Of a DNA stretch of 27,875 nt, positions 1,916-17,704 are shown piece after piece. Position numbers and translations under genes: made by a program. This stretch comes from an uncultured Erysipelotrichaceae bacterium. Its GTDB lineage: Bacteria > Bacillota_I > Bacilli_A > Erysipelotrichales > Erysipelotrichaceae. The notes under the pieces are model-generated. The model had not been told where the DNA came from and made no database searches. It was given only the letters and a program-made list of their open reading frames with translations. Position 1 is the stretch's first letter; every line of letters begins with the position of its first letter. Where the stretch lies: assembly GCA_964457525.1 (NCBI GenBank), contig CAYWGS010000010.1:1-27875 (forward strand). Reading direction: 5' to 3'.

Positions 1916-3178
1916 TTAAATATGATGCATTTTACGATAATCTTCTAAAGACATCTGTACAGGATAAGCATCCACAATACGACTTAATTTATCTGGATTG
2001 TGCATAATATCCTCAATCGTAGACAATAGAACATAAGCAGGATACACAAGCGCTTCATCTGCATTTGCCATACAGAAGTTCTTGCCATGAACCAGTCCCT
2101 TACAACCTGAGAAACCAAGTTGAATGGTTGGTTTGAATAAGGATAAGTCACCCATATCACCAGCCGCAAATGATTTTTGATGATCCACAATATTATTTGA
2201 AGGAATTAATTCTTCGATATAAGGAAGGCACAAATCACTTAGTTCTCTTGATTGAATCAGTGGCATATAACCCATACGATCTTCGATCTCAACCGAAGCA
2301 AATAAAGCTTCTGAACAATGTCTTGCGATATGATTTAACTTATCGTTAAGTTCTAATAATTTTTCAGGATTAATCGAGCGAACATATCCTTCAAGAACAG
2401 TATCAGAAGGAACAGAGTTTACACTATGTCCACCATTGGTTGTGATGAGATGTAGTCGAATACGATCATCTTCTTGGAAGGTTTCTCTTAATAATGCGAA
2501 TGCATTCTGTGTGAGTATTTGAGCATTTAATGCATTAATTCCCATATGAGGCATAACTGCCGCATGAGCTGCTTGACCTTTGAAATGAAATTTCTTATAG
2601 ATAAATCCACTTAGAGATGCATTAATCTCCATCGATGGTTTATTGGTTTCTCCCATGGTATGAACAGATAAGAAACAATCCACATCCTTAAATGCATCTT
2701 GTAAGATAAGATTTTGTTTACCCGATAATAATTGTATTTTATTCTCAGCCTGTAACTGTAAACGATAATCCAAATCCACAAACTCTTCTGCAGCTATGAA
2801 GTAACAACTCAATGTTCCATGAGGTTTATCTTTGTACTCATTCCATAACTTAAAGACATGTGAAAGAATCGTCGATTGAAGATGATGACCACATGCATGT
2901 GCTGCACCATCAGGACCAGCATTCGGATGTTCTAACACAACCAATGCGTCCATTTCGGAGATCAATCCAATATGAGGCTTACCACTTCCAACTTTGATGG
3001 AAAAACCACTTACCCCAAAATCTTGATCAATGGTTATATTGTGTTGATTCAAATACTTTAAGATAAGTTCTCGAGTTTTCTTTTCTTTAAATCCTAGTTC
3101 TGGATTATTAAATAAGACAGATTCCATCGTCTCAAGAGACATCTTCTCTTGTTCAAGTTTTTGTTTCCAATGATTCAT
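1916..3178 (-). CDS. M20-family (M20D/AbgB-like) metal-dependent amidohydrolase/peptidase
   Basis: MDALVV...GAAHACGHH metal-binding motif, about 420 aa. The start was moved to ATG 3178 because AAGAGG lies 8 nt upstream; the GTG at 3199 lies inside that RBS. Confidence 0.7.
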   Translation of the reverse strand: MNHWKQKLEQEKMSLETMESVLFNNPELGFKEKKTRELILKYLNQHNITIDQDFGVSGFSIKVGSGKPHIGLISEMDALVVLEHPNAGPDGAAHACGHHLQSTILSHVFKLWNEYKDKPHGTLSCYFIAAEEFVDLDYRLQLQAENKIQLLSGKQNLILQDAFKDVDCFLSVHTMGETNKPSMEINASLSGFIYKKFHFKGQAAHAAVMPHMGINALNAQILTQNAFALLRETFQEDDRIRLHLITTNGGHSVNSVPSDTVLEGYVRSINPEKLLELNDKLNHIARHCSEALFASVEIEDRMGYMPLIQSRELSDLCLPYIEELIPSNNIVDHQKSFAAGDMGDLSLFKPTIQLGFSGCKGLVHGKNFCMANADEALVYPAYVLLSTIEDIMHNPDKLSRIVDAYPVQMSLEDYRKMHHI

Positions 3179-3207
3179 CGTGTTACCTCTTTCTTTCACT
3201 ATAACAA

Positions 3208-3230
3208 AAACATTACGAATTGTAATGTTT
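3208..3230 (-). terminator. Hairpin overlapping the amidohydrolase stop codon (partial terminator or RNA-stability element inside the operon)
   Basis: 9-bp stem AAACATTAC / GTAATGTTT with a 5-nt loop. On the minus strand it is followed by TTTTTGTTAT. The M20 RBS begins about 10 nt after it. Confidence 0.45.
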
Positions 3231-4539
3231 AAGAATTAATGGATTGGTTTATACGTTCAATACTTTGATTAAACTGAGTAGATGCTTCAATACATTCTTG
3301 TTTGAGTTGTTTAACATCGATATCAACACAGTTTTTATGTCTTACTTTTAAGACTCCATCGACCCAAACAGAATCAACATTCGATGGATTTGCACTATAA
3401 ACAAGAAGAGAATAAGGATCATGATTCGGATACATGTTTATGGAATCTGTTTCGATGAGCACGAGATCGGCTTTCTTACCAACTTCAAGTGATCCAATTA
3501 AATGATCGAGATGTAAAACAGAAGCACCACCCAAGGTAGCCATCTGTACAATTTGTTTAGCAGGGAAGAGTCTACGATCATGATTATGTACTTTATGACA
3601 TTTAGCCACACTATTCATTTGTACAAACAAGTCTAGGGTATTACCACTGGATGGACCATCTGTTCCAAGTCCAATTCGTAACTTAGCTTCAACCATTTCT
3701 TTTAAAGGTGGAATACCTTTACCTGCTTTAGTATTTGCCCCAATACAATGTGCAACAGCAACATTGTGTTTCTGTAAGATATTAATATCTTCCTGTGTAG
3801 GGTGAATGGTATGAACAGATATAAAGTTAGAATCAAGTAAATCAATCGATTCTAAATATTGAATCGGTGTCGTTTGTTGGTTTCTGAAATAAGCCATTTC
3901 ATCATCCATCTCAGCTACATGCATGGATACTAATATATTATTTTCCTTAGAGAACTTACTTATCTTTTTTAACGTATCAGACGTTAGTGTTGTGGTTCCA
4001 TGAGGGCCTAAGGCAGGAATGATTCTAGGATGATCTTTCCATTTATAGTAGAATTCCTTCGCCAACTCAAAAGCTTCAACTTCATCCTTCGCATCACACA
4101 TGGATTGATTAATCATATTCTGAGCTACAACTGCTCGAACACCCATTTCATCATAGGTTTGTGCTAAACCATCCGCATAATAATACATATCCATGAATGT
4201 TGTGATACCGGATAATAAACTCTCAATCACCCCAATCTTAGCGCTCTTAAGAGCTAATTCATGGGTCATGGATTCCTTTTCGAGTGGAAATAAGAATTTA
4301 CGTAAGCGATCATAGAGATCATCTTGTAAGGATCTAAATGGAATCATGGATAAATGAGTATGGGTATTTACAAAACCAGGAATAAGTATTCCGTTTTTAC
4401 CATCAATGCATTCATCGTAATCAACATTCTCATTTATCGCAATAATACGGTCATTCTCGAATGTTAGAGAACTATTGTAATACGTTGTTAAATCCTTATC
4501 ACAACATAAAATTGTAATATTCTCAATTCTTGTTCGCAT
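3229..4539 (-). CDS. Amidohydrolase-superfamily deaminase/chlorohydrolase-like enzyme (MtaD/TrzA/SsnA family)
   Basis: Complete metal-ligand set: NTHTHLSM (HxH), MHVAEMDDE (H..E), VHTIH, GLGTDGPSSGNTLD. The start was set to ATG 4539 (MRTRIENITIL...) with GGAG upstream. It overlaps the LacI gene end by 17 nt. Confidence 0.75.
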   Translation of the reverse strand: MRTRIENITILCCDKDLTTYYNSSLTFENDRIIAINENVDYDECIDGKNGILIPGFVNTHTHLSMIPFRSLQDDLYDRLRKFLFPLEKESMTHELALKSAKIGVIESLLSGITTFMDMYYYADGLAQTYDEMGVRAVVAQNMINQSMCDAKDEVEAFELAKEFYYKWKDHPRIIPALGPHGTTTLTSDTLKKISKFSKENNILVSMHVAEMDDEMAYFRNQQTTPIQYLESIDLLDSNFISVHTIHPTQEDINILQKHNVAVAHCIGANTKAGKGIPPLKEMVEAKLRIGLGTDGPSSGNTLDLFVQMNSVAKCHKVHNHDRRLFPAKQIVQMATLGGASVLHLDHLIGSLEVGKKADLVLIETDSINMYPNHDPYSLLVYSANPSNVDSVWVDGVLKVRHKNCVDIDVKQLKQECIEASTQFNQSIERINQSINS

Positions 4540-5545
4540 GTTTAGGTTCTCCACACGTTTCACGTATGATTAATTTTACAAATGAATTCTCAGTGTAATC
4601 ATCAATATTACGATTCTCAATCTTCTCAATCAATTCAATCGTCGCATCCCAACCTAAAGCATATCGATTTGGATTCACACTGGTTAAGCCAGGTGTTAGG
4701 TACTGGTTGGTATCAATATCATCATATCCAATAACACTGAAATCTTCAGGAACAGATTTATTTAGTTCACGTAATGCTTTTAATACACCATAAGCAATGA
4801 GGTCATTTCCACAAACAATCGCACTTGCCTTGGTCTCTTTTAATACAGGAAGAAGTTCTTCATAGCCTGCTTCTGCACTAAAACCAGATAAAAAGAATCG
4901 ATTCTTCGTATGGAATGTTAGACCTTTTTCTTTAAGTGCTTCTTGATATCCAAGAAGTCCATGATTGGAATGATTGTAAACACTAGGACCTGTCGCAAAT
5001 AGAATTTCTTTATGACCAAGATCGATTAGGTGTTGAGTTGCGACATAACTACCTTCATTATTTAAACTTAGTTTTGATTCATTGATATAATTCTTCTTAT
5101 TGCCAGTTACGAAACAATAAGGAACATTTAATTTAAGTTGATGATTCTTAATTTTACTTTCAATTTGTAGACCCGACAATACAATCCCATCAATATGACG
5201 TGACTGCAGGGAACGAATATAATTAACTTCTTTCTCTAGAATATTATCAGAATTACAGAATACTAATGAATAACCATATTTATTCGCACAATCTTCACAA
5301 CCACGAATAACATCCGTAAAAAAAGGATTACGTACATCTGGTATCATGAGCGCAATGAGTTTCATCTGTGAGTTGCGCATACTTTGAGCCAAGATGCTAG
5401 GATAGTAATTCTCTTGTTCGATAATAGCTTTTACACGTGCAATCGTGGCTTGACTTAAATCATGGTCCTTGCCATTTAATATTTTTGATACTGTAGTGAT
5501 GGATACGCCTGAAAGTTGGGCGATTTTCTTGATTGTCGTTGGCAT
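4523..5545 (-). CDS. LacI family transcriptional regulator (RbsR/PurR-like)
   Basis: The N-terminal HTH IKKIAQLSGVSITTVSKILNGK is followed by a periplasmic-binding-protein-like sugar-binding fold, 340 aa. Confidence 0.85.
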   Translation of the reverse strand: MPTTIKKIAQLSGVSITTVSKILNGKDHDLSQATIARVKAIIEQENYYPSILAQSMRNSQMKLIALMIPDVRNPFFTDVIRGCEDCANKYGYSLVFCNSDNILEKEVNYIRSLQSRHIDGIVLSGLQIESKIKNHQLKLNVPYCFVTGNKKNYINESKLSLNNEGSYVATQHLIDLGHKEILFATGPSVYNHSNHGLLGYQEALKEKGLTFHTKNRFFLSGFSAEAGYEELLPVLKETKASAIVCGNDLIAYGVLKALRELNKSVPEDFSVIGYDDIDTNQYLTPGLTSVNPNRYALGWDATIELIEKIENRNIDDYTENSFVKLIIRETCGEPKHANKN

Positions 5546-5554
5546 AGTATTTCA

Positions 5555-5568
5555 GTTAAGCGTTTTCA
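5555..5568 (-). promoter_or_regulatory. LacI-family/cre-like operator candidate in the lacI-type gene leader
   Basis: The minus strand reads TGAAAACGCTTAAC, which has a central CG and a TGnAAnCGnnTA core shared with sites at 5703 and 5781. It lies 10 nt upstream of the regulator start codon. Confidence 0.35.
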
Positions 5569-5688
5569 TATATATCACTATCTTACTGAACTCAAATTAA
5601 TTATGCAAATGATTTTAGTCAATTTCTTAAATTTATTAAATCGATTTAGTTTATCGATTTAAATATTGAAAAATTCACATTAAAACGA

Positions 5689-5718
5689 TTGACATATAAA
5701 AATGTAATCGTATACAAT
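5689..5718 (+). promoter_or_regulatory. Sigma-A type promoter of the nucleoside transport/catabolism operon
   Basis: TTGACA (5689..5694), then either TATACA at 16-nt spacing or TACAAT (5713..5718) at 18-nt spacing. Confidence 0.55.
5703..5716. promoter_or_regulatory. LacI-family operator candidate overlapping the -10 region
   Basis: TGTAATCGTATACA is a 14-bp pseudo-palindrome with central CG. It has 1 mismatch to the cre pattern TGWAANCGNTNWCA. Confidence 0.45.
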
Positions 5719-5780
5719 GAACTAAAGTGATTTAAATCTTTAAAAACTACATCCACTCAAAATAGGAATATAAAAAAAAC

Positions 5781-5794
5781 TGTAAGCGGTTACT
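5781..5794. promoter_or_regulatory. cre-like / LacI-family operator candidate in the operon leader
   Basis: TGTAAGCGGTTACT has 1 mismatch to TGWAANCGNTNWCA. The inner GTAAGCGGTTAC is 10/12 palindromic. Confidence 0.5.
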
Positions 5795-5864
5795 TAATTT
5801 CTATCAGAGTATTGTTTAAAGATTAATCTCTCGATCATTTATTCAAAACAAGGAGGAACAATAA

Positions 5865-6941
5865 ATGAAAAAATTAGCATTAGTATTACTAACGCTCATT
5901 CTTCTTGCGGCATGTGGCACAGCAGCACCTGAAGAAGAACCTGTAGAAACAAAAGTCTACAAGGTAGCATTACTTGTTGGTGAATTAGGGGACTTATCCT
6001 TTAATGATTCAGCTGCACGTGGTGTTAAACAAGCAGACGAAGAATTTGATGATGTCGAAGTTGAAATTATTGAATACGGTACAGCAGTAGATAAATACGA
6101 ATCTTCTTTATTAGACACAGCTGATAAAGGTTATGACATGATCTTTACAAGCTCAACTTTACAAGAATTCGTTGAAGCTCATGCAGCTGAATTCCCAGAC
6201 ACAGTGTTTGGTGTATTCGATACAGAAATCGATTTCTCTAAAGGAAATCTAGACAATGTTTACGGTATTATTTATAAAGCAAATGAAGCTTCTTTCTTAG
6301 GTGGTTACTTAGCTGCTAAATTATCTCAAACAGGCGTTATTTCATTCTTAGGTGGTATGGATATTCCTGTTATCTCCGACTTCTTAGTTGGTTACATCCA
6401 AGGTGCTCAATTAGCTAATCCTGATGTTAAAGTAGCAATTACTTACGCTGGTAGCTGGTCTGATTCTGCTAAGGGTAAAGAATTAGCATTAACGATGTTT
6501 AACAACCAAAAAGCAGACGTTATCTTTAACGTTGCTGGTGGTACTGGTATTGGTGGTATCGAAGCTTCTGTTGAAACTGGAAAATGGTCACTCGGTGTTG
6601 ACTCTGACCAAGCTATGATCTATGACGCAGCTGGTAAGACTGACTTTGCTAACGCAATCGTTTCTTCCGTTTTAAAGAATGTTGATTACTCATTATACCG
6701 TGCAATTAGCTTACACCGTGAAGGTAAATTAGCTGTTGGTACAAACGAAACTTTAGGTATCGTTGAAGGCGGCGTTGGTTTAGCTGACAACAAATACTTC
6801 CAAGCAAACGTTTCTGAAGAAATTCGTAATGAAATCAAAGCTTTAGAAGAAAAAGTCACTGCTGGTGAAATTGAAGTTATCAGTGCTTATGGTAAGACAA
6901 CTGAAGAAATCACTGCTATCCGTGATGCTGTTAAGCCTTAA
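5865..6941 (+). CDS. BMP-family (PnrA/TmpC/Med-like) ABC transporter substrate-binding lipoprotein, probably nucleoside-binding
   Basis: Signal peptide with lipobox LLAAC. The GELGDLSFNDSAARG motif is typical of BMP-family proteins. A strong AAGGAGG RBS precedes it. Confidence 0.85.
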   Translation: MKKLALVLLTLILLAACGTAAPEEEPVETKVYKVALLVGELGDLSFNDSAARGVKQADEEFDDVEVEIIEYGTAVDKYESSLLDTADKGYDMIFTSSTLQEFVEAHAAEFPDTVFGVFDTEIDFSKGNLDNVYGIIYKANEASFLGGYLAAKLSQTGVISFLGGMDIPVISDFLVGYIQGAQLANPDVKVAITYAGSWSDSAKGKELALTMFNNQKADVIFNVAGGTGIGGIEASVETGKWSLGVDSDQAMIYDAAGKTDFANAIVSSVLKNVDYSLYRAISLHREGKLAVGTNETLGIVEGGVGLADNKYFQANVSEEIRNEIKALEEKVTAGEIEVISAYGKTTEEITAIRDAVKP

Positions 6942-10672: not shown

Positions 10673-11596
10673 ATGAAACAAAAATATTCAATCATTATTG
10701 ATTGTGACCCAGGCATTGATGATTCCTTTGCCCTTGTCTATGGTCATCTTTCAAATAGCTTTGATATAAAAGCGGTATTCAGTGTTGCGGGAAATGTTCC
10801 TATTGAAATGACAACCCTTAATTCAGAATTTATTCTCTCTGAACTTAATCTTAATGTTCCACTTTATCGAGGAGCAGAAGGTCCTATTGTTGGAGAACCC
10901 ATTATTGCGAAATATGCGCATGGATCCAATGGTTTAGGTGGTTATCAATTTGAACCAAACTTAAAAGTACATGCGAATACAAAGAATCCAACAGATGCTT
11001 ATTATGAGTTATTAAAGAGTTTTGATGAACCAGTAATTATTGCGGCGATTGGTCCATTAACCAATCTTGCGAAATTATTCATGGCATATCCTGATGTAAA
11101 TCAATACATCAAGGCAATCTATGTCATGGGTGGTGGAATTGTGAAGGGGAATTATACCGCTTCTGCAGAATTTAATATTGCGGCTGATCCATTAGCAGCT
11201 CAGATTGTGATTAACTCTGGGGTTAAACAATACTATGAACCTCTTGATACAACAACGGCTTATGGGTTCAATCGTGATTTCATGATGAAACTAAAGGATT
11301 CTAAACATCCTACATCACAACTTCTATTTAAGATAATTGATGCGAAAGAAAAACTCGATGTTAATCCAAATGCAGTTTACTATTTACATGATTTAATCAC
11401 TCTCATTGCGATTAATCATCCTGAATGGTTTGATTTTATCGATGTTCATATTGCGGTAGAACTCCATGGTGTTCATACAACCGGTATGACCATCTTCGAT
11501 CTTCGTGGTGAAAGAGCACAAAAACCAAATGCGATTTATGTCGCAAATCCTAAGTTTAGTGAGATTCAGAAACATGTCTTGGAGGTCTTAGTATGA
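10673..11596 (+). CDS. Nucleoside hydrolase (IUNH family), paralog 1
   Basis: N-terminal DCDPGIDD calcium/ribose-binding motif and a C-terminal LHD motif, 307 aa. Confidence 0.85.
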   Translation: MKQKYSIIIDCDPGIDDSFALVYGHLSNSFDIKAVFSVAGNVPIEMTTLNSEFILSELNLNVPLYRGAEGPIVGEPIIAKYAHGSNGLGGYQFEPNLKVHANTKNPTDAYYELLKSFDEPVIIAAIGPLTNLAKLFMAYPDVNQYIKAIYVMGGGIVKGNYTASAEFNIAADPLAAQIVINSGVKQYYEPLDTTTAYGFNRDFMMKLKDSKHPTSQLLFKIIDAKEKLDVNPNAVYYLHDLITLIAINHPEWFDFIDVHIAVELHGVHTTGMTIFDLRGERAQKPNAIYVANPKFSEIQKHVLEVLV

Positions 11597-12516
11597 TCGA
11601 AAAAATTCCATGTATTATTGATACAGATCCAGGGGTTGATGATGCATTTGCTATTCTATATGCAGCTAAACATCCCAAATTAGATTTGCTTGCGATTACG
11701 ACAGTATTTGGGAATGTAGGTTTACAATACACATCCAAGAATGCTCAACTCTTAGCTGGCTATATCTCTAAGGAAATTCCTGTTGCTCTAGGTCATAAAC
11801 AAGCCTTAGTGGTACGTAAAGAAGATGCGGGAGATACACATGGTTCGGATGGATTTGGTGGACGATATGAAACATACAAGCAAAATGCGAGTACTCGTCC
11901 CTATCATCCCAATTCAGTTCAACTTTTAAAAGAAACGCTTATCGAATCAAAAGAACCTGTTGTTTTATTCCCTATTGGACCTTTAACCAATATTGCGAGT
12001 TTATTATCAGCGTATCCTGAACTCAAATCAAAGATTCGTTGTATTAGTTTAATGGGTGGCGCGTTTGCCCATGGTAACCGTTCATCTGCAGCAGAGTTCA
12101 ACATTCTATCCGATCCAGAAGCTGCACAAATTGTGTATGAAAGTGGAGTGCCCATTGTGATGTCAGGCCTTGATATCACAGACCAAGCGAGTTTAAGTCA
12201 AACTGAACTTGAACGTATTCTAGAGATTGGTAAAGCAGATAGTAAATTACTATATGATATCTTTGGATTATATGCGAGTCATGATCGCAACTTACATGAT
12301 CCAATCGCAATTATGGCGATTACAGACCCTGAATTATTTGAGTTTGTAGACGTACATGTGGATGTTGAAACGGGTGGACATTTTGCAGTTGGCGCAACCA
12401 TTCCTGATTTCAGATCAAAAGCAAATCCTAATGCTAGCTTAGTCAAAGTAGCGATGAAATTAGATCATAGTGCATTTGTAGATCGACTCATTGAAATATT
12501 ACAAAAAGACGCATAA
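11593..12516 (+). CDS. Nucleoside hydrolase (IUNH family), paralog 2
   Basis: DTDPGVDD motif, NLHDPIA motif, 307 aa. It has an ATGA overlap with paralog 1. Confidence 0.85.
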   Translation: MIEKIPCIIDTDPGVDDAFAILYAAKHPKLDLLAITTVFGNVGLQYTSKNAQLLAGYISKEIPVALGHKQALVVRKEDAGDTHGSDGFGGRYETYKQNASTRPYHPNSVQLLKETLIESKEPVVLFPIGPLTNIASLLSAYPELKSKIRCISLMGGAFAHGNRSSAAEFNILSDPEAAQIVYESGVPIVMSGLDITDQASLSQTELERILEIGKADSKLLYDIFGLYASHDRNLHDPIAIMAITDPELFEFVDVHVDVETGGHFAVGATIPDFRSKANPNASLVKVAMKLDHSAFVDRLIEILQKDA

Positions 12517-12524
12517 TCATCACA

Positions 12525-12553
12525 AAAGGACAATACGATTTGTGTTGTCCTTT
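12525..12553 (+). other. Intercistronic hairpin
   Basis: 9-bp stem AAAGGACAA / TTGTCCTTT with an 11-nt loop and only a short T tail. Confidence 0.35.
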
Positions 12554-12567
12554 ATTGAAAGGAAACT

Positions 12568-13845
12568 ATGAATACCGATAAACGAGTCTTAAATCATTGT
12601 ACCTTACTCGACGAAGAAGGAAATATATACAGCGATAAAACCATTGTGATTCAAAATGGCATTATTGAACGAATAACCGATGAATTTATAGATGGGGAAG
12701 ATTGTTCCGGTTTAATAATTTCACCAAGCTTTGTGAACTGTCATACGCATGCCGCAATGAATATCTTCAAAGGGATTGCGGAAGATGTTCACATCGATGC
12801 ATGGTTTAATGAAGAGATCTGGCCATATGAAAGTAAGATGTTAGATGATGATGTAAGAGTAGGCACAAAACTTGCGATTGCGGAAATGTTAAACAATGGG
12901 GTTACTGCATTTGCGGATCATTACTTTAATCCAAAATCAATCATTGACGCAACCGAAGAGATGAACATCAAGGCTGATATTGCGATTACGTTGTTTAGTC
13001 AGTTTCCAGGTTATGAAGAACAACTCAAAGAAGCAATCAATCTCATACAATCAAGTAAGAAAGAAAATATCAACTTAAGACTCGGTCCACATTCACCTTA
13101 TACCTGTACAAGAGAGGCATTAAAGGAAATGAGTGATTGGGCAAAGAAGTTAGACTGTGGACTTCATTTACATGTATCTGAAACCCAAAGACAGGTCGAT
13201 GATAGTATTAAATTGCATGGCAAATCACCTTTACAAATCGTTTATGAAACAGGTTGTTTAGATGTTCCATGTGTCATTGCTCATGGATTATACATCCATC
13301 CGAATGAATTTAAGTTGTTAAGCGATGATACACTGATCGCATTAAGTCCAAAAACTTATCAAAAATTAGCGATGGGAACAGGGTATCTATGGGATAACTT
13401 AGATCTTGAACATTATGGTATTGGAACGGATGGAGCCGCATCAAGCAACACCTTATCCCCATTAGAACAAGCTCGTACACTCGCTTTACTACATAAACAT
13501 GAGAAACAAGATTCCACATTATCCGATGTTAAGTCAATCTGGAAACTACTCATGAACGGACATCGTGCATTTAAGTTCAATAGTGGTAAACTGAAGGTAG
13601 GTTACAGTGCAGATTTAATTGTCTGGGACTTAAATCGCATTAATACCATACCACTCTATAATCCACTAGCATCCATCATTTATAGCAGTGATTCATCCAA
13701 TATAAAAGCAGTCATGATTAATGGAGACTATGTTAAAGAAGATTATCATCTAGAAGTAGATGAACAAAGCCTTATTCAAGAAGTCCAAGTTCGTGTAAAT
13801 GACTTACTTGAAAGAGGTAAAGGAAAAGCAAAAGTACAATTCTAA
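12568..13845 (+). CDS. Amidohydrolase-superfamily nucleoside/nucleobase deaminase (MtaD/TrzA family)
   Basis: NCHTHAAMNIFKGIAEDVHIDAWFNEEIWPYE resembles the MtaD N-terminus. LHLHVSETQRQ, AHG and GIGTDGAASSNTL complete the metal site. Confidence 0.75.
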   Translation: MNTDKRVLNHCTLLDEEGNIYSDKTIVIQNGIIERITDEFIDGEDCSGLIISPSFVNCHTHAAMNIFKGIAEDVHIDAWFNEEIWPYESKMLDDDVRVGTKLAIAEMLNNGVTAFADHYFNPKSIIDATEEMNIKADIAITLFSQFPGYEEQLKEAINLIQSSKKENINLRLGPHSPYTCTREALKEMSDWAKKLDCGLHLHVSETQRQVDDSIKLHGKSPLQIVYETGCLDVPCVIAHGLYIHPNEFKLLSDDTLIALSPKTYQKLAMGTGYLWDNLDLEHYGIGTDGAASSNTLSPLEQARTLALLHKHEKQDSTLSDVKSIWKLLMNGHRAFKFNSGKLKVGYSADLIVWDLNRINTIPLYNPLASIIYSSDSSNIKAVMINGDYVKEDYHLEVDEQSLIQEVQVRVNDLLERGKGKAKVQF

Positions 13846-13871
13846 ATTGTGAAGTTATAAAAAGGAGAAAT

Positions 13872-14780
13872 ATGGGAAAAATAGTCATCGTTGGTAGTAT
13901 TAATATGGATTATACGGCTCTATTAGAAGAATTACCGAATCCAGGAGAAACGCTCATGGCGAAGGGATTTAAGATGTCTGGAGGAGGTAAAGGTGCGAAT
14001 CAAGCAATGGCAGCCGCAATCTTCTCAAAAGATGTCTTAATGGTCGGTTGTTTAGGAGATGATCCAGCAGGACATGCTTTATACGAAAAGATGAAGAACA
14101 AAGGCATTGATATGTCCTGTGTTGAATTTACACAGACACCAACAGGCAATGCATTGATTTATGTAGCGGAACAAGGCAAGAACACAATCGTTGTTTATCC
14201 AGGTGCTAACCAAGATTGTACACCTGCCTATGTTGAGAAATATCGTAGTGTTATTGAGAAGGCAAGTTTAGTGATGATGCAACTGGAAATTCCAATGGAA
14301 ACCGTTGAGTATGTTGCAGATATTGCATACAAAGCAAATGTACCGATTCTTCTAAACCCTGCTCCAGCCAATACACTTAGTGATGAGTTAATCTCAAAGA
14401 TTACCTATTTAACCCCAAATGAAACAGAACTCTTACGCATCACAAACCAATATGATGCGAAAAAGGGTGGAATTGTTTTACAAGAAATGGGTGTTAAGAA
14501 CATCGTCGTAACCCTTGGATCCAATGGTTGTTACATGAAGACTGAAAAGGAAGAAGATCGTATTCCAACTTTCAAAGTGAATGCGATTGATACAACCGCT
14601 GCCGGAGATTCATTCAGTGGTGCTTTAGCTGCTCATCTTGCAAAGGGGTATGAATTAAAAGAGGCTCTTAAGATTGCGAACGCAACTGGAGCACTTACCA
14701 CAACAAAGATAGGAGCTCAAGAAGCATTGCCAACCGAAGAAGAAGTTCATCAACTTATAAAATCACAAAAAGCAGAGTAA
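13872..14780 (+). CDS. rbsK: Ribokinase
   Basis: PfkB-family signatures GGKGANQA and DTTAAGDSFSGAL, 302 aa, in a ribose-releasing operon context. Confidence 0.85.
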   Translation: MGKIVIVGSINMDYTALLEELPNPGETLMAKGFKMSGGGKGANQAMAAAIFSKDVLMVGCLGDDPAGHALYEKMKNKGIDMSCVEFTQTPTGNALIYVAEQGKNTIVVYPGANQDCTPAYVEKYRSVIEKASLVMMQLEIPMETVEYVADIAYKANVPILLNPAPANTLSDELISKITYLTPNETELLRITNQYDAKKGGIVLQEMGVKNIVVTLGSNGCYMKTEKEEDRIPTFKVNAIDTTAAGDSFSGALAAHLAKGYELKEALKIANATGALTTTKIGAQEALPTEEEVHQLIKSQKAE

Positions 14781-14792
14781 TTCTGCTTTTTT
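14767..14792 (+). terminator. Rho-independent terminator of the nucleoside operon
   Basis: Stem AGCAGA / TCTGCT extended by A/T pairs, loop GTAAT, followed by a T6 run. Confidence 0.65.
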
Positions 14793-14822
14793 CGTCGAAA
14801 TATAAAAAAATACACTCTATAG
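14790..14822 (+). promoter_or_regulatory. Bipartite motif copy 1 (TTTCGTCGAAA-N13-ACTCTATA) in front of the sigma factor gene
   Basis: The 11-mer and the ACTCTnTA box are identical, and identically spaced, to the copy at 15335..15367. It ends 8 nt before ATG 14830, and there is no SD. Confidence 0.55.
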
Positions 14823-14829
14823 TATTAGT

Positions 14830-15333
14830 ATGAGAAATACAAAAGAAGAATTTGAAACAATCTATAACGCAACCTTTGAGACACTCAGTAAGCATGTCTA
14901 TTTTAAAGTCGCAAAGTTGGAAGATGCTCAGGATTTAGTACAAGAAGTCTATCTTGATTTCTATAAATACATTATTTCAAAAGGGAAACAAGTAGAAAAT
15001 GTACAAGCGTATCTTATTCAAATGGCGAATAATAAGTTATCAAACTATTATAAGAATAAAACTTTTGAGACAACTCTATTAAATGAAGATCATTTACTCG
15101 AAACAATTGAAGATGAGTTTGATCTCGAGTTCGATGTATTAGATCGAATCACATTAGATGAGATATGGAAAGAAATACAAAGTTATTCTAATCTAGACCA
15201 ACATATTCTGATTGATTATTATCGTTTTGGTTTAAATTTCAGGGAAATATCAGAACGATATAATATTCCTGAAAGTACAATTAAGAGTCGTTGCCAAAAG
15301 ATGATAAAAGAACTTAAAGATAAATTCAAATAA
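14830..15333 (+). CDS. RNA polymerase sigma-70 family sigma factor, ECF-like (regions 2 and 4 only)
   Basis: 167 aa. Region 2-like DAQDLVQEVYLDFYKYI; region 4.2 HTH LNFREISERYNIPESTIKSRCQKMIKELK. Confidence 0.8.
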   Translation: MRNTKEEFETIYNATFETLSKHVYFKVAKLEDAQDLVQEVYLDFYKYIISKGKQVENVQAYLIQMANNKLSNYYKNKTFETTLLNEDHLLETIEDEFDLEFDVLDRITLDEIWKEIQSYSNLDQHILIDYYRFGLNFREISERYNIPESTIKSRCQKMIKELKDKFK

Positions 15334-15334
15334 A

Positions 15335-15367
15335 TTTCGTCGAAAATAATAAATTAGTACTCTGTAT
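15335..15367 (+). promoter_or_regulatory. Bipartite motif copy 2 (TTTCGTCGAAA-N13-ACTCTGTA) in front of the anti-sigma-like gene
   Basis: See copy 1. It begins 2 nt after the sigma gene stop. Confidence 0.55.
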
Positions 15368-15388
15368 AAGTGAAAGGACTAGGTAAAT

Positions 15389-16381
15389 ATGAACAAACTC
15401 GAAAAAAGCATTCAAAAAAATGCGTTTAATCAAGAAGAGATGTTACTAAAAATTCAACGTGAAACATATGGCCTAAAGTCCAAAACACTTTTTGGAGGAA
15501 ACCCTATGAAAAAGATCATTGGAATACTAGCATTAAGCTTTACCTTAATTTTTGCGGTATGGTTTGGATTAAACCAACAAACACCAATTGATAAGGATGA
15601 AGTCGTATTGCTTGTTGGAGTTGATATCAATCCAAGTTTTGAACTGTCGGTTAATCGTAATGATAATGTCGTGAAGATTGAGGCATTAAATGATGATGCA
15701 AAAACCATTGATGTATCCGATTTACTCGATCAACCGGTTGAAGATGTCGTAGAAGAAATTATCAAAAGAGCTGAACAGGCTGGATTTATCAATATCGACG
15801 ATTTAGAAGAAGATTATGTTGTCGTATCATCGGTATCCTTAATCGATGATGAGGATGATCAAGATGATTTAGAAGATGAGATTGAAGATAAGATTAAAGA
15901 TAGTGAATACTTACAATCCCTCAATATCGTTCAAATCAAGGCAACTCAACGTGAAAAGTTTGAAGCGGAAGGGAAAAATGTTCCAGTTGGTTTATATGTT
16001 ATTAATGGATATGTTTTACAAGAAGATGGAACATTCTTAAGTGCTAAAGAATTCTTCTCTGATCCAGAAAACAAAGAAGCCATCCGTAATCGTTCAAATA
16101 TCACTGAAGAGAAACAAGAAAGACTACAATTACGATTAGAAGAAACATTGAATCAATTAGAAGAAAATGGATTTGATGTAACACAATATCGTTTAAGACT
16201 TGAAACAGCTGATTATGAACAAATGTTACAAATACAATCTGAATTAAAAGTAGAATCCAGAAATTACAACAAATCACAAAAACCAAAAGATGATGAGGAT
16301 GAAGAATCAGAAATAACTGAGCCGCGTGGTAATTCTAATGTATTGCCCAAAGAGAATAAAAACGCTGGCAAAGGGAACTAG
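15389..16381 (+). CDS. Single-pass membrane protein with an RsgI-like juxtamembrane ectodomain and an acidic low-complexity tail (putative anti-sigma factor)
   Basis: TM segment IIGILALSFTLIFAVWFGL, then VGVDINPSFELSVNRNDNVVKIEALNDDAKTI...EEIIKRAEQAGFI...YVVVSSV, which resembles the RsgI post-TM module. This is followed by DDEDDQDDLEDEIED and a K/E/D-rich tail. An alternative in-frame start at 15506 has GGAGGA upstream. Confidence 0.6.
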   Translation: MNKLEKSIQKNAFNQEEMLLKIQRETYGLKSKTLFGGNPMKKIIGILALSFTLIFAVWFGLNQQTPIDKDEVVLLVGVDINPSFELSVNRNDNVVKIEALNDDAKTIDVSDLLDQPVEDVVEEIIKRAEQAGFINIDDLEEDYVVVSSVSLIDDEDDQDDLEDEIEDKIKDSEYLQSLNIVQIKATQREKFEAEGKNVPVGLYVINGYVLQEDGTFLSAKEFFSDPENKEAIRNRSNITEEKQERLQLRLEETLNQLEENGFDVTQYRLRLETADYEQMLQIQSELKVESRNYNKSQKPKDDEDEESEITEPRGNSNVLPKENKNAGKGN

Positions 16382-16406
16382 AAAGAGATAATCTCTTTCT
16401 TTTTTT
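16381..16406 (+). terminator. Rho-independent terminator
   Basis: GAAAGAG / CTCTTTC stem with loop ATAAT, followed by a T7 run. Confidence 0.7.
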
Positions 16407-16438
16407 AGGTTATAATAAGTTTACGATTGAGGATCAAT

Positions 16439-17704
16439 ATGAAGAAATATTTAATCTGTTTAGTCATACTACTTTTAAGTGCTTGTGCGAGTGAGACAGC
16501 ACCCATAGAATCTGGAAAAGATCTTCGTTTTTATGTCGCAACGGATATCCATTTACTATCCAAAGACTTGATGAAAAACGATGAACTCATGGCACAAGTG
16601 TTTGAATATGGGGATGGTCGATTTGTACACTATTCCAATGAGATTATGAGTACATTATCTGATACCGTTAAGAATAATGAAGTTGATGTTTTAATCCTAA
16701 GTGGTGATTTAACACACGATGGTGAGAAAGCAAGTCATCTTGCGATGGCAGCTCAACTCAAGGAAATAGAGAAGAATGGAACACGTGTATATGTTGCGCC
16801 GGGTAACCATGATTTAGAGAATCCATTCGCAAAAGATTATGCGGAAGGTGGATGGGTTACAGCTGAAACCATCACAAAGGATGATTTTGAAGATATCTAC
16901 AAGAATTATGGTTATAAAGAAGCTATTTTAAGAGATCCCAATGGATTAAGTTACTTAGTTGCGCCTTCAGAAGATGTATATCTACTAATGCTCGATTCCA
17001 ATAAATATGGCATGTTAAATATGCCAACAGGGGGTGGAGTCATTAAAGAAGAAACGCTTGAATGGATAAAAGAAGCCACACAAATCGCACGAGATGCGAA
17101 TGCACAAATTATTACAGTGATGCATCATAATTTAATTAAACACAGTGAACGTCTCTATCAGGGATATGTTATTAATAACAGTGAAGAGGTTGTGCCAGTG
17201 TTTGATGAATTAGGGTTATCGATTGTGTTAAGTGGTCATATGCATGCACAATCCATTAAATCAACTGAACAAAAGAATCATACAATCTATGATATTGTGA
17301 CATCTTCAATGAGTATCTATCCAATGAATGTAGGTGTACTTGAATATAAAAAGAATGAAGGATTTAGTTATCATCTTGAATCCTTGGATATCGAATCTTG
17401 GGCAAAAGTGAATAGTACAGATCCCAATTTATTGAACTTCAATGCGTACTCAAAAGAAATGAACTATCTACAGAACTATAATCGAGCAGTTAGTTCCCTT
17501 ATCGAAGAAGAATATGATGTGGATGAGTCGCTCGTCTTGAGTGATGAAGTTGTACAACGATTGAAAAATGCGAATTTCAATGGAGTTATACGTCAAATCA
17601 AGAATGAATTACTTATCTTACATGGTTATAAAACAGAATCAGAGATTGAATCAATCCCAAGCATTCAACCTGTAACAGAGGTTGATATACAGGAACAAAA
17701 ATAA
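16439..17704 (+). CDS. Lipoprotein metallophosphoesterase (calcineurin-like phosphoesterase) with an uncharacterised C-terminal domain
   Basis: Lipobox LLSAC. MPE motifs DIH, GDLTHDG, GNHD, HH, GHMH. The start was set at ATG 16439 behind GAGGA. Confidence 0.75.
   Translation: MKKYLICLVILLLSACASETAPIESGKDLRFYVATDIHLLSKDLMKNDELMAQVFEYGDGRFVHYSNEIMSTLSDTVKNNEVDVLILSGDLTHDGEKASHLAMAAQLKEIEKNGTRVYVAPGNHDLENPFAKDYAEGGWVTAETITKDDFEDIYKNYGYKEAILRDPNGLSYLVAPSEDVYLLMLDSNKYGMLNMPTGGGVIKEETLEWIKEATQIARDANAQIITVMHHNLIKHSERLYQGYVINNSEEVVPVFDELGLSIVLSGHMHAQSIKSTEQKNHTIYDIVTSSMSIYPMNVGVLEYKKNEGFSYHLESLDIESWAKVNSTDPNLLNFNAYSKEMNYLQNYNRAVSSLIEEEYDVDESLVLSDEVVQRLKNANFNGVIRQIKNELLILHGYKTESEIESIPSIQPVTEVDIQEQK

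Follow-up and report, generated by a model that had tools for sequence, protein, structure and literature searches.

An ECF-type sigma factor gene paired with a gene for a putative anti-sigma factor that carries an RsgI-type SEAL ectodomain

Introduction

What kind of signalling system is formed when a small sigma factor, resembling the extracytoplasmic-function (ECF) type, is encoded directly ahead of a membrane protein whose outer part resembles RsgI, the partner of SigI? This question is raised by two co-directional open reading frames (ORFs), 14830..15333 and 15389..16381, on contig CAYWGS010000010.1 of an uncultured Erysipelotrichaceae bacterium (assembly GCA_964457525.1). Both lie within a 27,875-nucleotide stretch of that contig, all of which was analyzed and which we refer to as the window. 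The original prediction, which was made from the DNA letters alone, had described these ORFs as a hybrid signalling module that combines an ECF-like sigma factor with an RsgI-like ectodomain. Both ORF coordinates were recovered in our analysis, and the hybrid reading was strengthened: the gene order is kept in 39 loci, and a short N-terminal peptide of the membrane protein is detected only beside an ECF sigma gene. We consider it probable that the two genes encode a cognate pair, in which a single-pass anti-sigma factor with an external RsgI-type SEAL domain tethers a group-4 (ECF) sigma factor to the membrane.

SEAL/RsgI periplasmic domains have been reported in SigI/RsgI systems and in proteins that lack an anti-sigma domain (SEAL-PepSY fusions, for example), and in the literature searched we found no report of a SEAL domain paired with an ECF sigma factor. 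The paper that reclassified the ECF sigma factors excludes SigI-like sigma factors and does not mention RsgI; an unnamed ECF group in that reclassification may already contain the sigma factors described here. SEAL signalling, that is, constitutive autoproteolysis followed by dissociation triggered by force or ligand, has so far been tied to SigI/RsgI. The present family would show that the SEAL ectodomain is a portable module that can also be used by ECF sigma factors, which form the largest class among the alternative sigma factors. The positions of all features of the locus are collected in Table 1.

Table 1. Features of the sigma/anti-sigma locus, in window coordinates
Feature	Position (nt)	Strand	Evidence or remark
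Upstream hairpin terminator	14767..14791	+	Terminator-like hairpin of the pfkB-kinase gene, sequence AGCAGAgtaatTCTGCTTTTTT
Motif P1, TTTCGTC-N18-CTCTATA	14790..14821	+	8 nt before the sigma start codon
ECF-type (group 4) sigma factor, 167 aa	14830..15333	+	Pfam, NCBIfam, PDB sequence and fold matches
Motif P2, TTTCGTC-N18-CTCTGTA	15335..15366	+	Sigma/anti-sigma spacer; copy conserved across the family
Conserved TGAAAGGAC, likely transcript 5' end and Shine-Dalgarno sequence for start 15389	15371..15379	+	Most of 23 aligned sites
Cytoplasmic N-terminal peptide (residues 1-27), MNKLEKSIQKNAFNQEEMLLKIQRETY	15389..15469	+	Conserved motif, purifying selection, hidden Markov model
Internal ribosome-binding site and Met40	15494..15508	+	GGAGGA (15494..15499), 6-nt spacer, ATG 15506
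Transmembrane helix (residues 43-61)	15515..15571	+	Hydrophobic segment IIGILALSFTLIFAVWFGL; helix 45-60 in the model
SEAL / RsgI_M juxtamembrane domain (residues 72-206)	15602..16006	+	Pfam, phmmer against PDB, AlphaFold2 model, Foldseek
Asn81-Pro82, predicted autoproteolytic (site-1) bond	15629..15634	+	Alignment to solved RsgI domains, three-residue hairpin
Family-specific conserved extracytoplasmic module (residues 207-297)	16007..16279	+	AlphaFold2 model, conserved columns
Disordered tail (residues 298-330) and stop codon	16280..16381	+	pLDDT below 50
Intrinsic terminator closing the two-gene unit	16380..16407	+	Hairpin 16380..16400, then T-run

Results

The sigma factor is of the ECF type and is not SigI

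The sigma factor was described by the original prediction as consisting of regions 2 and 4 only, and this composition was found by Pfam, with Sigma70_r2 at residues 21-77, Sigma70_r4 at residues 123-163, and no region 3. The generic ECF model of NCBIfam, TIGR02937 (sigma70-ECF), gave 61.4 bits with a cut-off of 42.9. No named ECF subgroup was assigned, as the specific NCBIfam models (BldN family, SigZ, SigX, SigM, SigY, and others) all remained far under their cut-offs. The structural model contains two helical domains, sigma-2 at about residues 4-82 and sigma-4 at about residues 99-166, with an acidic disordered linker at residues 79-97. When the PDB was searched with the sequence (E≤1), the sigma factors that matched were exclusively ECF sigma factors, with no SigI among them. 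Foldseek analysis of the model gave a consistent picture: up to rank 28, all matches except one other complex were ECF sigma structures (SigL, SigH, EcfG, BldN, SigK, sigmaE, SigW, and AlgU), CnrH appeared at rank 32 and SigL again at rank 34, and no SigI structure was present in the top 50. The window sigma factor is thus ECF-type and does not cluster with SigI, as had been proposed.

These data also bear on whether the locus is simply an ordinary SigI/RsgI pair that has diverged past easy recognition. The SEAL domain, which is common to RsgI, and the NCBI label of homologue P0008 ("anti-sigma-I factor RsgI family protein") would both fit such an origin. Against it, no SigI model occurred among the 25 best NCBIfam matches of the 167-aa sigma factor, which shows a clear Sigma70_r4 and no SigI-C domain replacing sigma-4. 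The sigma factors of the relatives L008, L040, and L044 likewise had no SigI match at E≤1e-8, whereas the positive control, the sigma factors encoded ahead of canonical RsgI genes in Fredinandcohnia, Sedimentibacter, and Wukongibacter, reached 150-400 bits on the NCBIfam SigI models. BLASTP of the window sigma factor against a SigI returned no significant alignment, and neither did the N-terminal peptide against RsgI_N (see below); the promoter motif of the family is also unlike the SigI type. We find a disguised SigI/RsgI pair scarcely credible.

An RsgI-type SEAL ectodomain with a conserved Asn-Pro bond

The downstream gene encodes a 330-aa single-pass membrane protein with one hydrophobic segment, at residues 43-61. 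The KK at the N-terminal flank of this segment and the acidic residues at its C-terminal flank indicate an N-in, C-out topology. The only significant Pfam match of the protein was RsgI_M (PF23750), at residues 75-205 (E=5.6e-23), and a phmmer search against the PDB retrieved RsgI periplasmic domains only, both clostridial and from Bacillus subtilis. An AlphaFold2 model was built with 72 homologues, and its predicted local distance difference test score (pLDDT) was about 86-97 across residues 71-190. When this model was compared with the PDB by Foldseek, the ten best matches were RsgI SEAL/periplasmic domains, and nothing else was found at E≤0.001. The top match was B. subtilis RsgI (8t9n_A; E=2.3e-7, target-normalised template-modelling score 0.84, root-mean-square deviation 2.0 Å, 138 columns), followed by 8hdj, 8heq, 8her, 8u9o, and 8hep. 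Therefore, the window ectodomain is an RsgI-type SEAL domain. The earlier recognition of an RsgI juxtamembrane module behind the transmembrane helix was correct, with residues 65-150 resembling RsgI ectodomains both by profile and by structure.

The self-cleavage of SEAL domains has been mapped to an Asn-Pro bond within a conserved beta-hairpin of three residues (Brogan et al., PMC10556640), and the same cleavage has been reported for the RsgI proteins of Clostridium thermocellum (Chen et al., PMC10328401); autoproteolysis of the RsgI SEAL domain is followed by RasP/RseP-dependent intramembrane proteolysis (PMC10556640, PMC10328401). In our model, I80-N81-P82 forms the three-residue turn that links strands 72-79 and 83-89. 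The B chains of 8hep, 8her, 8hdj, and 8heq are the fragments released by autoproteolysis, and their first residue aligns exactly to P82, which agrees with the proposal that this dipeptide occupies the site-1 position of RsgI-family proteins. Moreover, N81-P82-S83-F84-E85 is shared by all 72 homologues, and conservation at D79 and I80 reaches at least 90%. By analogy with these solved domains, we infer that the window protein cleaves itself at N81|P82.

The remainder of the ectodomain was expected by the original prediction to be an RsgI-like disordered sensor, made up of a poly-acidic tract and a K/E/D-rich tail, and this part did not hold. The acidic tract (residues 152-170; nt 15842..15898) forms helix 155-171 inside the SEAL domain and has an equivalent in the aligned RsgI domains of known structure, and residues 207-297 are conserved and predicted to be folded. 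The latter region starts with short elements and continues with helices 243-259, 265-272, and 276-297, with a pLDDT of 84-94 over residues 221-290. Conserved columns in the C-terminal part include P199, G201, L202, Y203, F222, F223, R249, G261, L271, and A274. No counterpart of residues 207-297 was found in Pfam, NCBIfam, or the PDB, and a hidden Markov model (HMM) of the C-terminal module recovers it in family members. On the basis of the model, we regard this region as a candidate sensor or interaction module. RsgI proteins have a long disordered region and/or a C-terminal sensor domain beyond the SEAL domain. In the window protein, no known sensor domain was recognized there, and predicted disorder is limited to residues 298-330, a tail whose length and composition vary between homologues.

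The pairing with an ECF sigma gene is kept across the family

To define the family, loci encoding homologues were surveyed in one genome per GTDB species, and 77 loci were returned. An ECF-like sigma gene is located directly upstream and on the same strand in 39 of them, and the encoded sigma factors share 32-81% identity with the window sigma factor. The sigma-paired loci come from metagenome-assembled genomes (MAGs) of Erysipelotrichaceae and also of Mageeibacillus, Eubacteriales, other Bacillota, and some Clostridia. The pairing is kept even where identity of the anti-sigma protein drops to about 23-30%. In the remaining loci the pair is canonical: the membrane protein has an RsgI_N-type start and the sigma factor is SigI. 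All homologues of the 330-aa protein have PF23750 alone.

A full-profile search was also run on 1.84 billion cluster representatives (50%-identity clusters), yielding 6724 relatives at E≤1e-3, 793 at E≤1e-10, and 95 at E≤1e-30. The N-termini of the best 148 representatives were classed using HMMs and regular expressions. At least 41 of these carry the short N-terminal motif according to an iterated HMM, with about a dozen more recognized by eye, and at least 50 have an RsgI_N-type N-terminus; some have only a transmembrane helix or a lipoprotein signal.

SEAL paralogues without the N-terminal peptide are present in L019 (about 2380..3470), L023 (2350..3320), and L029-L031 (about 4010). The paralogues in L019 and L023 lie directly upstream of the sigma gene and carry the TTTCGTC-N18-CTCT promoter motif, and those in L029-31 have neither an adjoining sigma gene nor the promoter motif.

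A short conserved peptide takes the place of RsgI_N

RsgI_N was not detected in the anti-sigma protein by Pfam, even at E≤1, and BLASTP of the peptide against the N-terminus of a true RsgI (RsgI_N) gave no significant alignment. The absence of RsgI_N and the presence of a short, unrelated cytoplasmic part are therefore as first noted. True RsgI proteins, found in L045-L077, begin with an MKxG[IV]V...-type sequence. The peptide motif of the window protein and its relatives reads MNKLxKSIxxNAFNE[DE]xMLxxI in short form. The fuller consensus is M-N-K-L-K-x-S-[IF]-x-x-[HN]-A-[FL]-N-E-[DE]-x-[ML]-L-x-[RK]-I, which is followed by a variable basic stretch and then by the transmembrane helix. A 27-position HMM of the peptide matched 34 loci, always at the start of the SEAL gene, and a sigma gene is located upstream in 33 of the 34; in the other one, L043, the contig starts 88 nt upstream of the gene. 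No match of this HMM was obtained in the RsgI/SigI loci or in the sigma-less paralogues L029-31.

Is the peptide translated at all? If Met40 were the sole true start, the 39 upstream codons would be untranslated, and the product would be a membrane-anchored SEAL protein without a cytoplasmic part. A strong Shine-Dalgarno sequence that stands 6 nt before ATG 15506 and is conserved across clades would fit this, as would several database gene calls that begin at the equivalent Met (P0092, P0106, P0112, and P0119). We therefore compared codons 2-22 of the window gene and six orthologues. The proportion of synonymous differences (pS) was 0.6-1.0 in most pairs, which is at or near saturation (the closest pairs were lower), and the proportion of nonsynonymous differences (pN) was 0.12-0.29. 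The amino-acid motif also persists in relatives with just 23-35% overall identity, and the Shine-Dalgarno-like TGAAAGGAC upstream of the first start is conserved. Because pS is saturated while pN is low, and because the motif is kept at about 25% overall identity, we conclude that the peptide is translated and under purifying selection, in agreement with the earlier assumption that the N-terminal 39 residues are translated. A sole start at Met40 is very unlikely.

Which function could so short a peptide have? Its conserved hydrophobic residues, L4, I8, A12/F13, M18/L19, and I22, are found at helical spacing. Class II anti-sigma domains, such as those of CnrY and NepR, are two-helix clamps that grip sigma-2 and sigma-4 (PMC6101532), so that a small two-helix element would be an established way of holding an ECF sigma factor. 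By analogy, residues 1-27 are proposed to be the sigma-binding element of the window protein.

A conserved internal start may produce a second isoform

The GGAGGA before Met40 is stronger than the ribosome-binding site of ATG 15389. In 23 of 32 sigma-linked genes, a Met occurs 3-6 residues before the transmembrane helix, and 21 of these 23 have a Shine-Dalgarno-like pentamer 4-13 nt upstream of it. The residues encoded at this internal site differ by clade (FGG, QGG, PKE, RKE, RRI, PRR, and AKEE), and the DNA keeps GGAGG or AAGGAG. That the nucleotide motif is kept despite the differing residues points to selection on the DNA itself and hence to translation of an additional, roughly 291-aa product without the N-terminal peptide. 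Stand-alone genes with the architecture of this truncated isoform exist in L019, L023, and L029-31. These patterns suggest that the Met40 start gives a second, sigma-free isoform, and it is more likely that the internal start is additional than that it is the sole one. If the isoform is real, it would represent a new way to set the sigma/anti-sigma output.

A bipartite promoter-like motif precedes the anti-sigma gene in the family

The bipartite motif TTTCGTC-N18-CTCT[AG]TA occurs twice in the window, at P1 and P2 (Table 1), and nowhere else there. In 1.19 Mb of related loci (both strands), the strict form TTTCGT[CT]-N18-CTC[TG] has 28 occurrences, 18 of which are in the sigma/anti-sigma spacer of about 60 nt. 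TGAAAGGAC follows the motif in most of the aligned sites, with the start codon about 10 nt beyond. Divergent members (L024 and L026-28) keep the spacing and have a GCAACGA-type upstream half. The same motif precedes the sigma gene in L004, L007, L009, and L018, with a degenerate form in L001-L003 and L006, and copies also stand before the N-truncated SEAL paralogues just ahead of the sigma gene in L019 and L023. As a bipartite element of fixed spacing that is tied to the sigma locus and to the paralogues, the motif resembles an ECF target promoter, and we infer that it is used by the window sigma factor.

P1 ends 8 nt from the sigma ATG, with no Shine-Dalgarno sequence in between, which implies a nearly leaderless sigma message. 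At the corresponding sigma start, the close relatives L001 and L002 have AGGAG in a longer spacer. More distant relatives have TATACT-type -10 elements ahead of the sigma gene. Judging from these promoters, the common design may be basal expression of the sigma factor combined with sigma-dependent expression of the anti-sigma factor. In L022 (3912) and L025 (3892), the -35-like TTTCGTC ahead of the anti-sigma gene shares bases with the 3' end of the sigma gene, including its stop codon (TTTCGTCTAAATAA).

The original prediction had stated that the regulon was not obvious from context. This has changed in so far as a conserved sigma-type promoter motif was found, and it stands in so far as no members beyond the two genes were seen in the window: scans for the exact motif and for copies with 1-3 mismatches returned the two locus sites only, and a looser pattern returned noise. 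An exact-pattern scan of metagenomes gave 50 matches. Seven of these are family sigma/anti-sigma loci, and the motif was found at the same position in the further family loci L089, L096, L098, L101, and L103; most others are chance matches in unrelated DNA of higher GC content.

One exact motif, at 2121..2152 (minus) in L088, a low-GC metagenome contig, lies 26 nt upstream of a gene for a 371-aa multi-pass membrane protein, with a TATAAT box between the motif and the start codon. This gene could belong to the regulon of a relative, or the match could be due to chance; it was not counted as a regulon member, as no related context supports it. In L025, a third copy of the motif occurs downstream of the anti-sigma gene, within 5076..6442, 50 nt upstream of a gene for a secreted protein. 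The protein (5156..6442; 428 aa) has a signal-peptide-like N-terminus and five to six tandem repeats. The repeats, seen in this single locus, match an HMM of the anti-sigma module 243-297 weakly and share the pattern L..L...G.D.T.YE..L..A...L..LY.

A model for the cognate pair, and the SEAL protein as a mere target

The model of a cognate pair, derived from the domain composition, gene pairing, and conservation described above, would work as follows. In the cytoplasm, the N-terminal peptide of about 27 residues, as two short amphipathic helices of the size of a class II two-helix clamp, would bind the ECF sigma factor. Outside, the SEAL domain would, by homology, cleave itself at N81/P82, and the two fragments would be held together by their shared beta-sheet. 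An external cue acting on module 207-297 and the short tail would then separate the fragments. As suggested by work on RsgI, the resulting stub of about 20 residues would permit the cut of an intramembrane site-2 protease, and the sigma factor would be set free. The free sigma factor would transcribe from TTTCGTC-N18-CTCT[AG]TA promoters, as motif conservation suggests. Almost all relatives have such a promoter ahead of the anti-sigma gene, and its activation would provide negative feedback and resetting; the extra promoter before the sigma gene in the window lineage would add positive feedback.

Several observations weigh against this model. Six sigma-linked loci fall under the threshold of the peptide HMM, and a related motif is recognized in them by eye only (e.g. 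L040: LKRSLEDHVFNQQTMADRI). In the Pfam search, no known anti-sigma domain was recognized in the peptide, and its two short helices (residues 3-11 and 15-27) are predicted by AlphaFold2 at low confidence (pLDDT 54-60). With regard to the promoters, the -35-like TTTCGTC differs from the common "GAAC" type of ECF promoters, and the P1 site can also be read as a weak sigma-70-like promoter (TCGAAA-17-TATAGT). Neither a site-2 protease gene nor regulon members beyond the two genes were seen in the window. Finally, the conserved motif directly before the SEAL gene would also fit a SEAL protein that is a mere target of the sigma factor.

This last point is the core of the most serious alternative, in which the SEAL protein is an envelope protein and the main target of the adjoining ECF sigma factor rather than its anti-sigma factor, the peptide has another cytoplasmic role, and the sigma factor is controlled elsewhere or by its own transcription. 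Consistent with this alternative, the motif precedes the SEAL gene and not the sigma gene in most relatives, the L019 and L023 paralogues carry the same promoter without having the peptide, and the internal start could yield a peptide-less isoform; in addition, the peptide is very short and modelled at low confidence, and SEAL proteins without an anti-sigma domain have been reported (PMC10556640). Against it, the peptide is under purifying selection and is detected only beside the sigma gene, not in the sigma-less paralogues. The layout of cytoplasmic peptide, single transmembrane helix, and SEAL domain mirrors RsgI exactly, and two-helix anti-sigma domains of like size are established (PMC6101532). 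We therefore judge a target-only role of the SEAL protein to be unlikely and retain the cognate pair as the preferred explanation.

A more far-reaching version of the cognate pair can be formulated. It supposes an undescribed, fairly widespread ECF class that uses a mechanosensitive, self-cleaving SEAL domain through the peptide of about 27 residues and makes both a long, sigma-tethering isoform and a short Met40 isoform. In this class, the sigma factor would drive its own anti-sigma gene and the stand-alone short paralogues, and one genome or more would add a secreted protein made of repeats of the C-terminal module of the anti-sigma factor. We offer this version tentatively and would not expect all of it to hold; if true, it would constitute a self-referential surface-sensing circuit.

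Comparison with known sigma/anti-sigma systems

The closest known system is SigI-RsgI of B. subtilis and Clostridium (Hungateiclostridium) thermocellum. RsgI shares with the window protein a cytoplasmic sigma-binding element (putative in the window protein), a single transmembrane helix, a juxtamembrane SEAL domain (RsgI_M), and the Asn-Pro site in a three-residue beta-hairpin, and in both systems the sigma gene is located directly upstream. The expected mechanism is also alike, namely constitutive autoproteolysis, regulated dissociation of the fragments, and site-2 cleavage. In contrast to SigI, which has about 250 aa and a SigI-C domain, the window sigma factor is a 167-aa ECF protein with a canonical sigma-4. 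The window protein has an unrelated peptide of about 27 residues in the place of RsgI_N and, beyond the SEAL domain, a conserved module of about 90 residues that is predicted to be folded and a 33-residue tail instead of long disorder or a carbohydrate-binding module; the promoter motif differs as well. The window protein is thus RsgI-like outside and minimal and ECF anti-sigma-like inside, and it lacks two features that define SigI/RsgI, RsgI_N and a SigI partner. The label "anti-sigma-I factor RsgI family protein" therefore poses an annotation problem, as it fits the ectodomain and is wrong for the partner, which is not SigI.

Class II anti-sigma factors (CnrY of CnrH-CnrY; NepR) have a very short sigma-binding element of two helices in the cytoplasm, such as is predicted for the window protein; in CnrY this element is tied to a single transmembrane helix and an ECF partner. 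CnrY lacks a SEAL domain and does not cleave itself, and there is no detectable sequence similarity between class II elements and the window peptide, whose helices are low-confidence predictions. In the sigmaE-RseA, SigW-RsiW, and SigV-RsiV systems, as proposed for the window pair, an ECF sigma factor is sequestered by a single-pass anti-sigma factor encoded downstream and is set free through stepwise proteolysis that ends with a site-2 protease. However, they rely on a four-helix class I domain and a separate site-1 protease (DegS, PrsW, or signal peptidase), whereas self-cleavage of the SEAL domain is predicted for the window protein.

SEAL proteins without an anti-sigma domain, such as the SEAL-PepSY fusions (Brogan et al. 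2023), also have a SEAL domain with the conserved hairpin residues and no cytoplasmic domain that Pfam recognizes. The paralogues counted as sigma-less (L019, L023, and L029-31) and several lipoprotein-type representatives fit this description. The window protein differs from this group in its conserved cytoplasmic peptide and its adjoining ECF sigma gene, and it has no PepSY domain.

In the window pair, cytoplasmic coupling is apparently reducible to about 27 residues. With 167 aa and 330 aa and a defined promoter, the whole system would make a manageable model of SEAL signalling and possibly an orthogonal switch.

The two-gene unit is insulated from its neighbours

The sigma and anti-sigma ORFs are bracketed by two hairpin terminators. 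The upstream one belongs to the pfkB-kinase gene, which indicates that the unit is insulated on its 5' side, and the downstream one, a hairpin with a T-run, is the terminator that had been noted after the anti-sigma gene. The neighbouring genes in the window encode nucleoside hydrolases, an amidohydrolase, a pfkB kinase, a metallophosphoesterase lipoprotein, an ATP-binding cassette transporter with a GntR regulator, and a phosphotransferase-system EIIA protein; the promoter motif is absent at all of them.

The metallophosphoesterase lipoprotein (16427..17704) was considered as a regulon member and ruled out, since its synteny is kept in the close relatives L002-L007 only and a terminator lies in between. 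It combines a calcineurin-like phosphoesterase domain with a cyclic-nucleotide-phosphodiesterase C-terminal domain. On the other side, at 10673..14780, two inosine-uridine nucleoside hydrolases, the amidohydrolase, and the pfkB-family kinase form a nucleoside-salvage-like cluster, which the terminator divides from the sigma unit.

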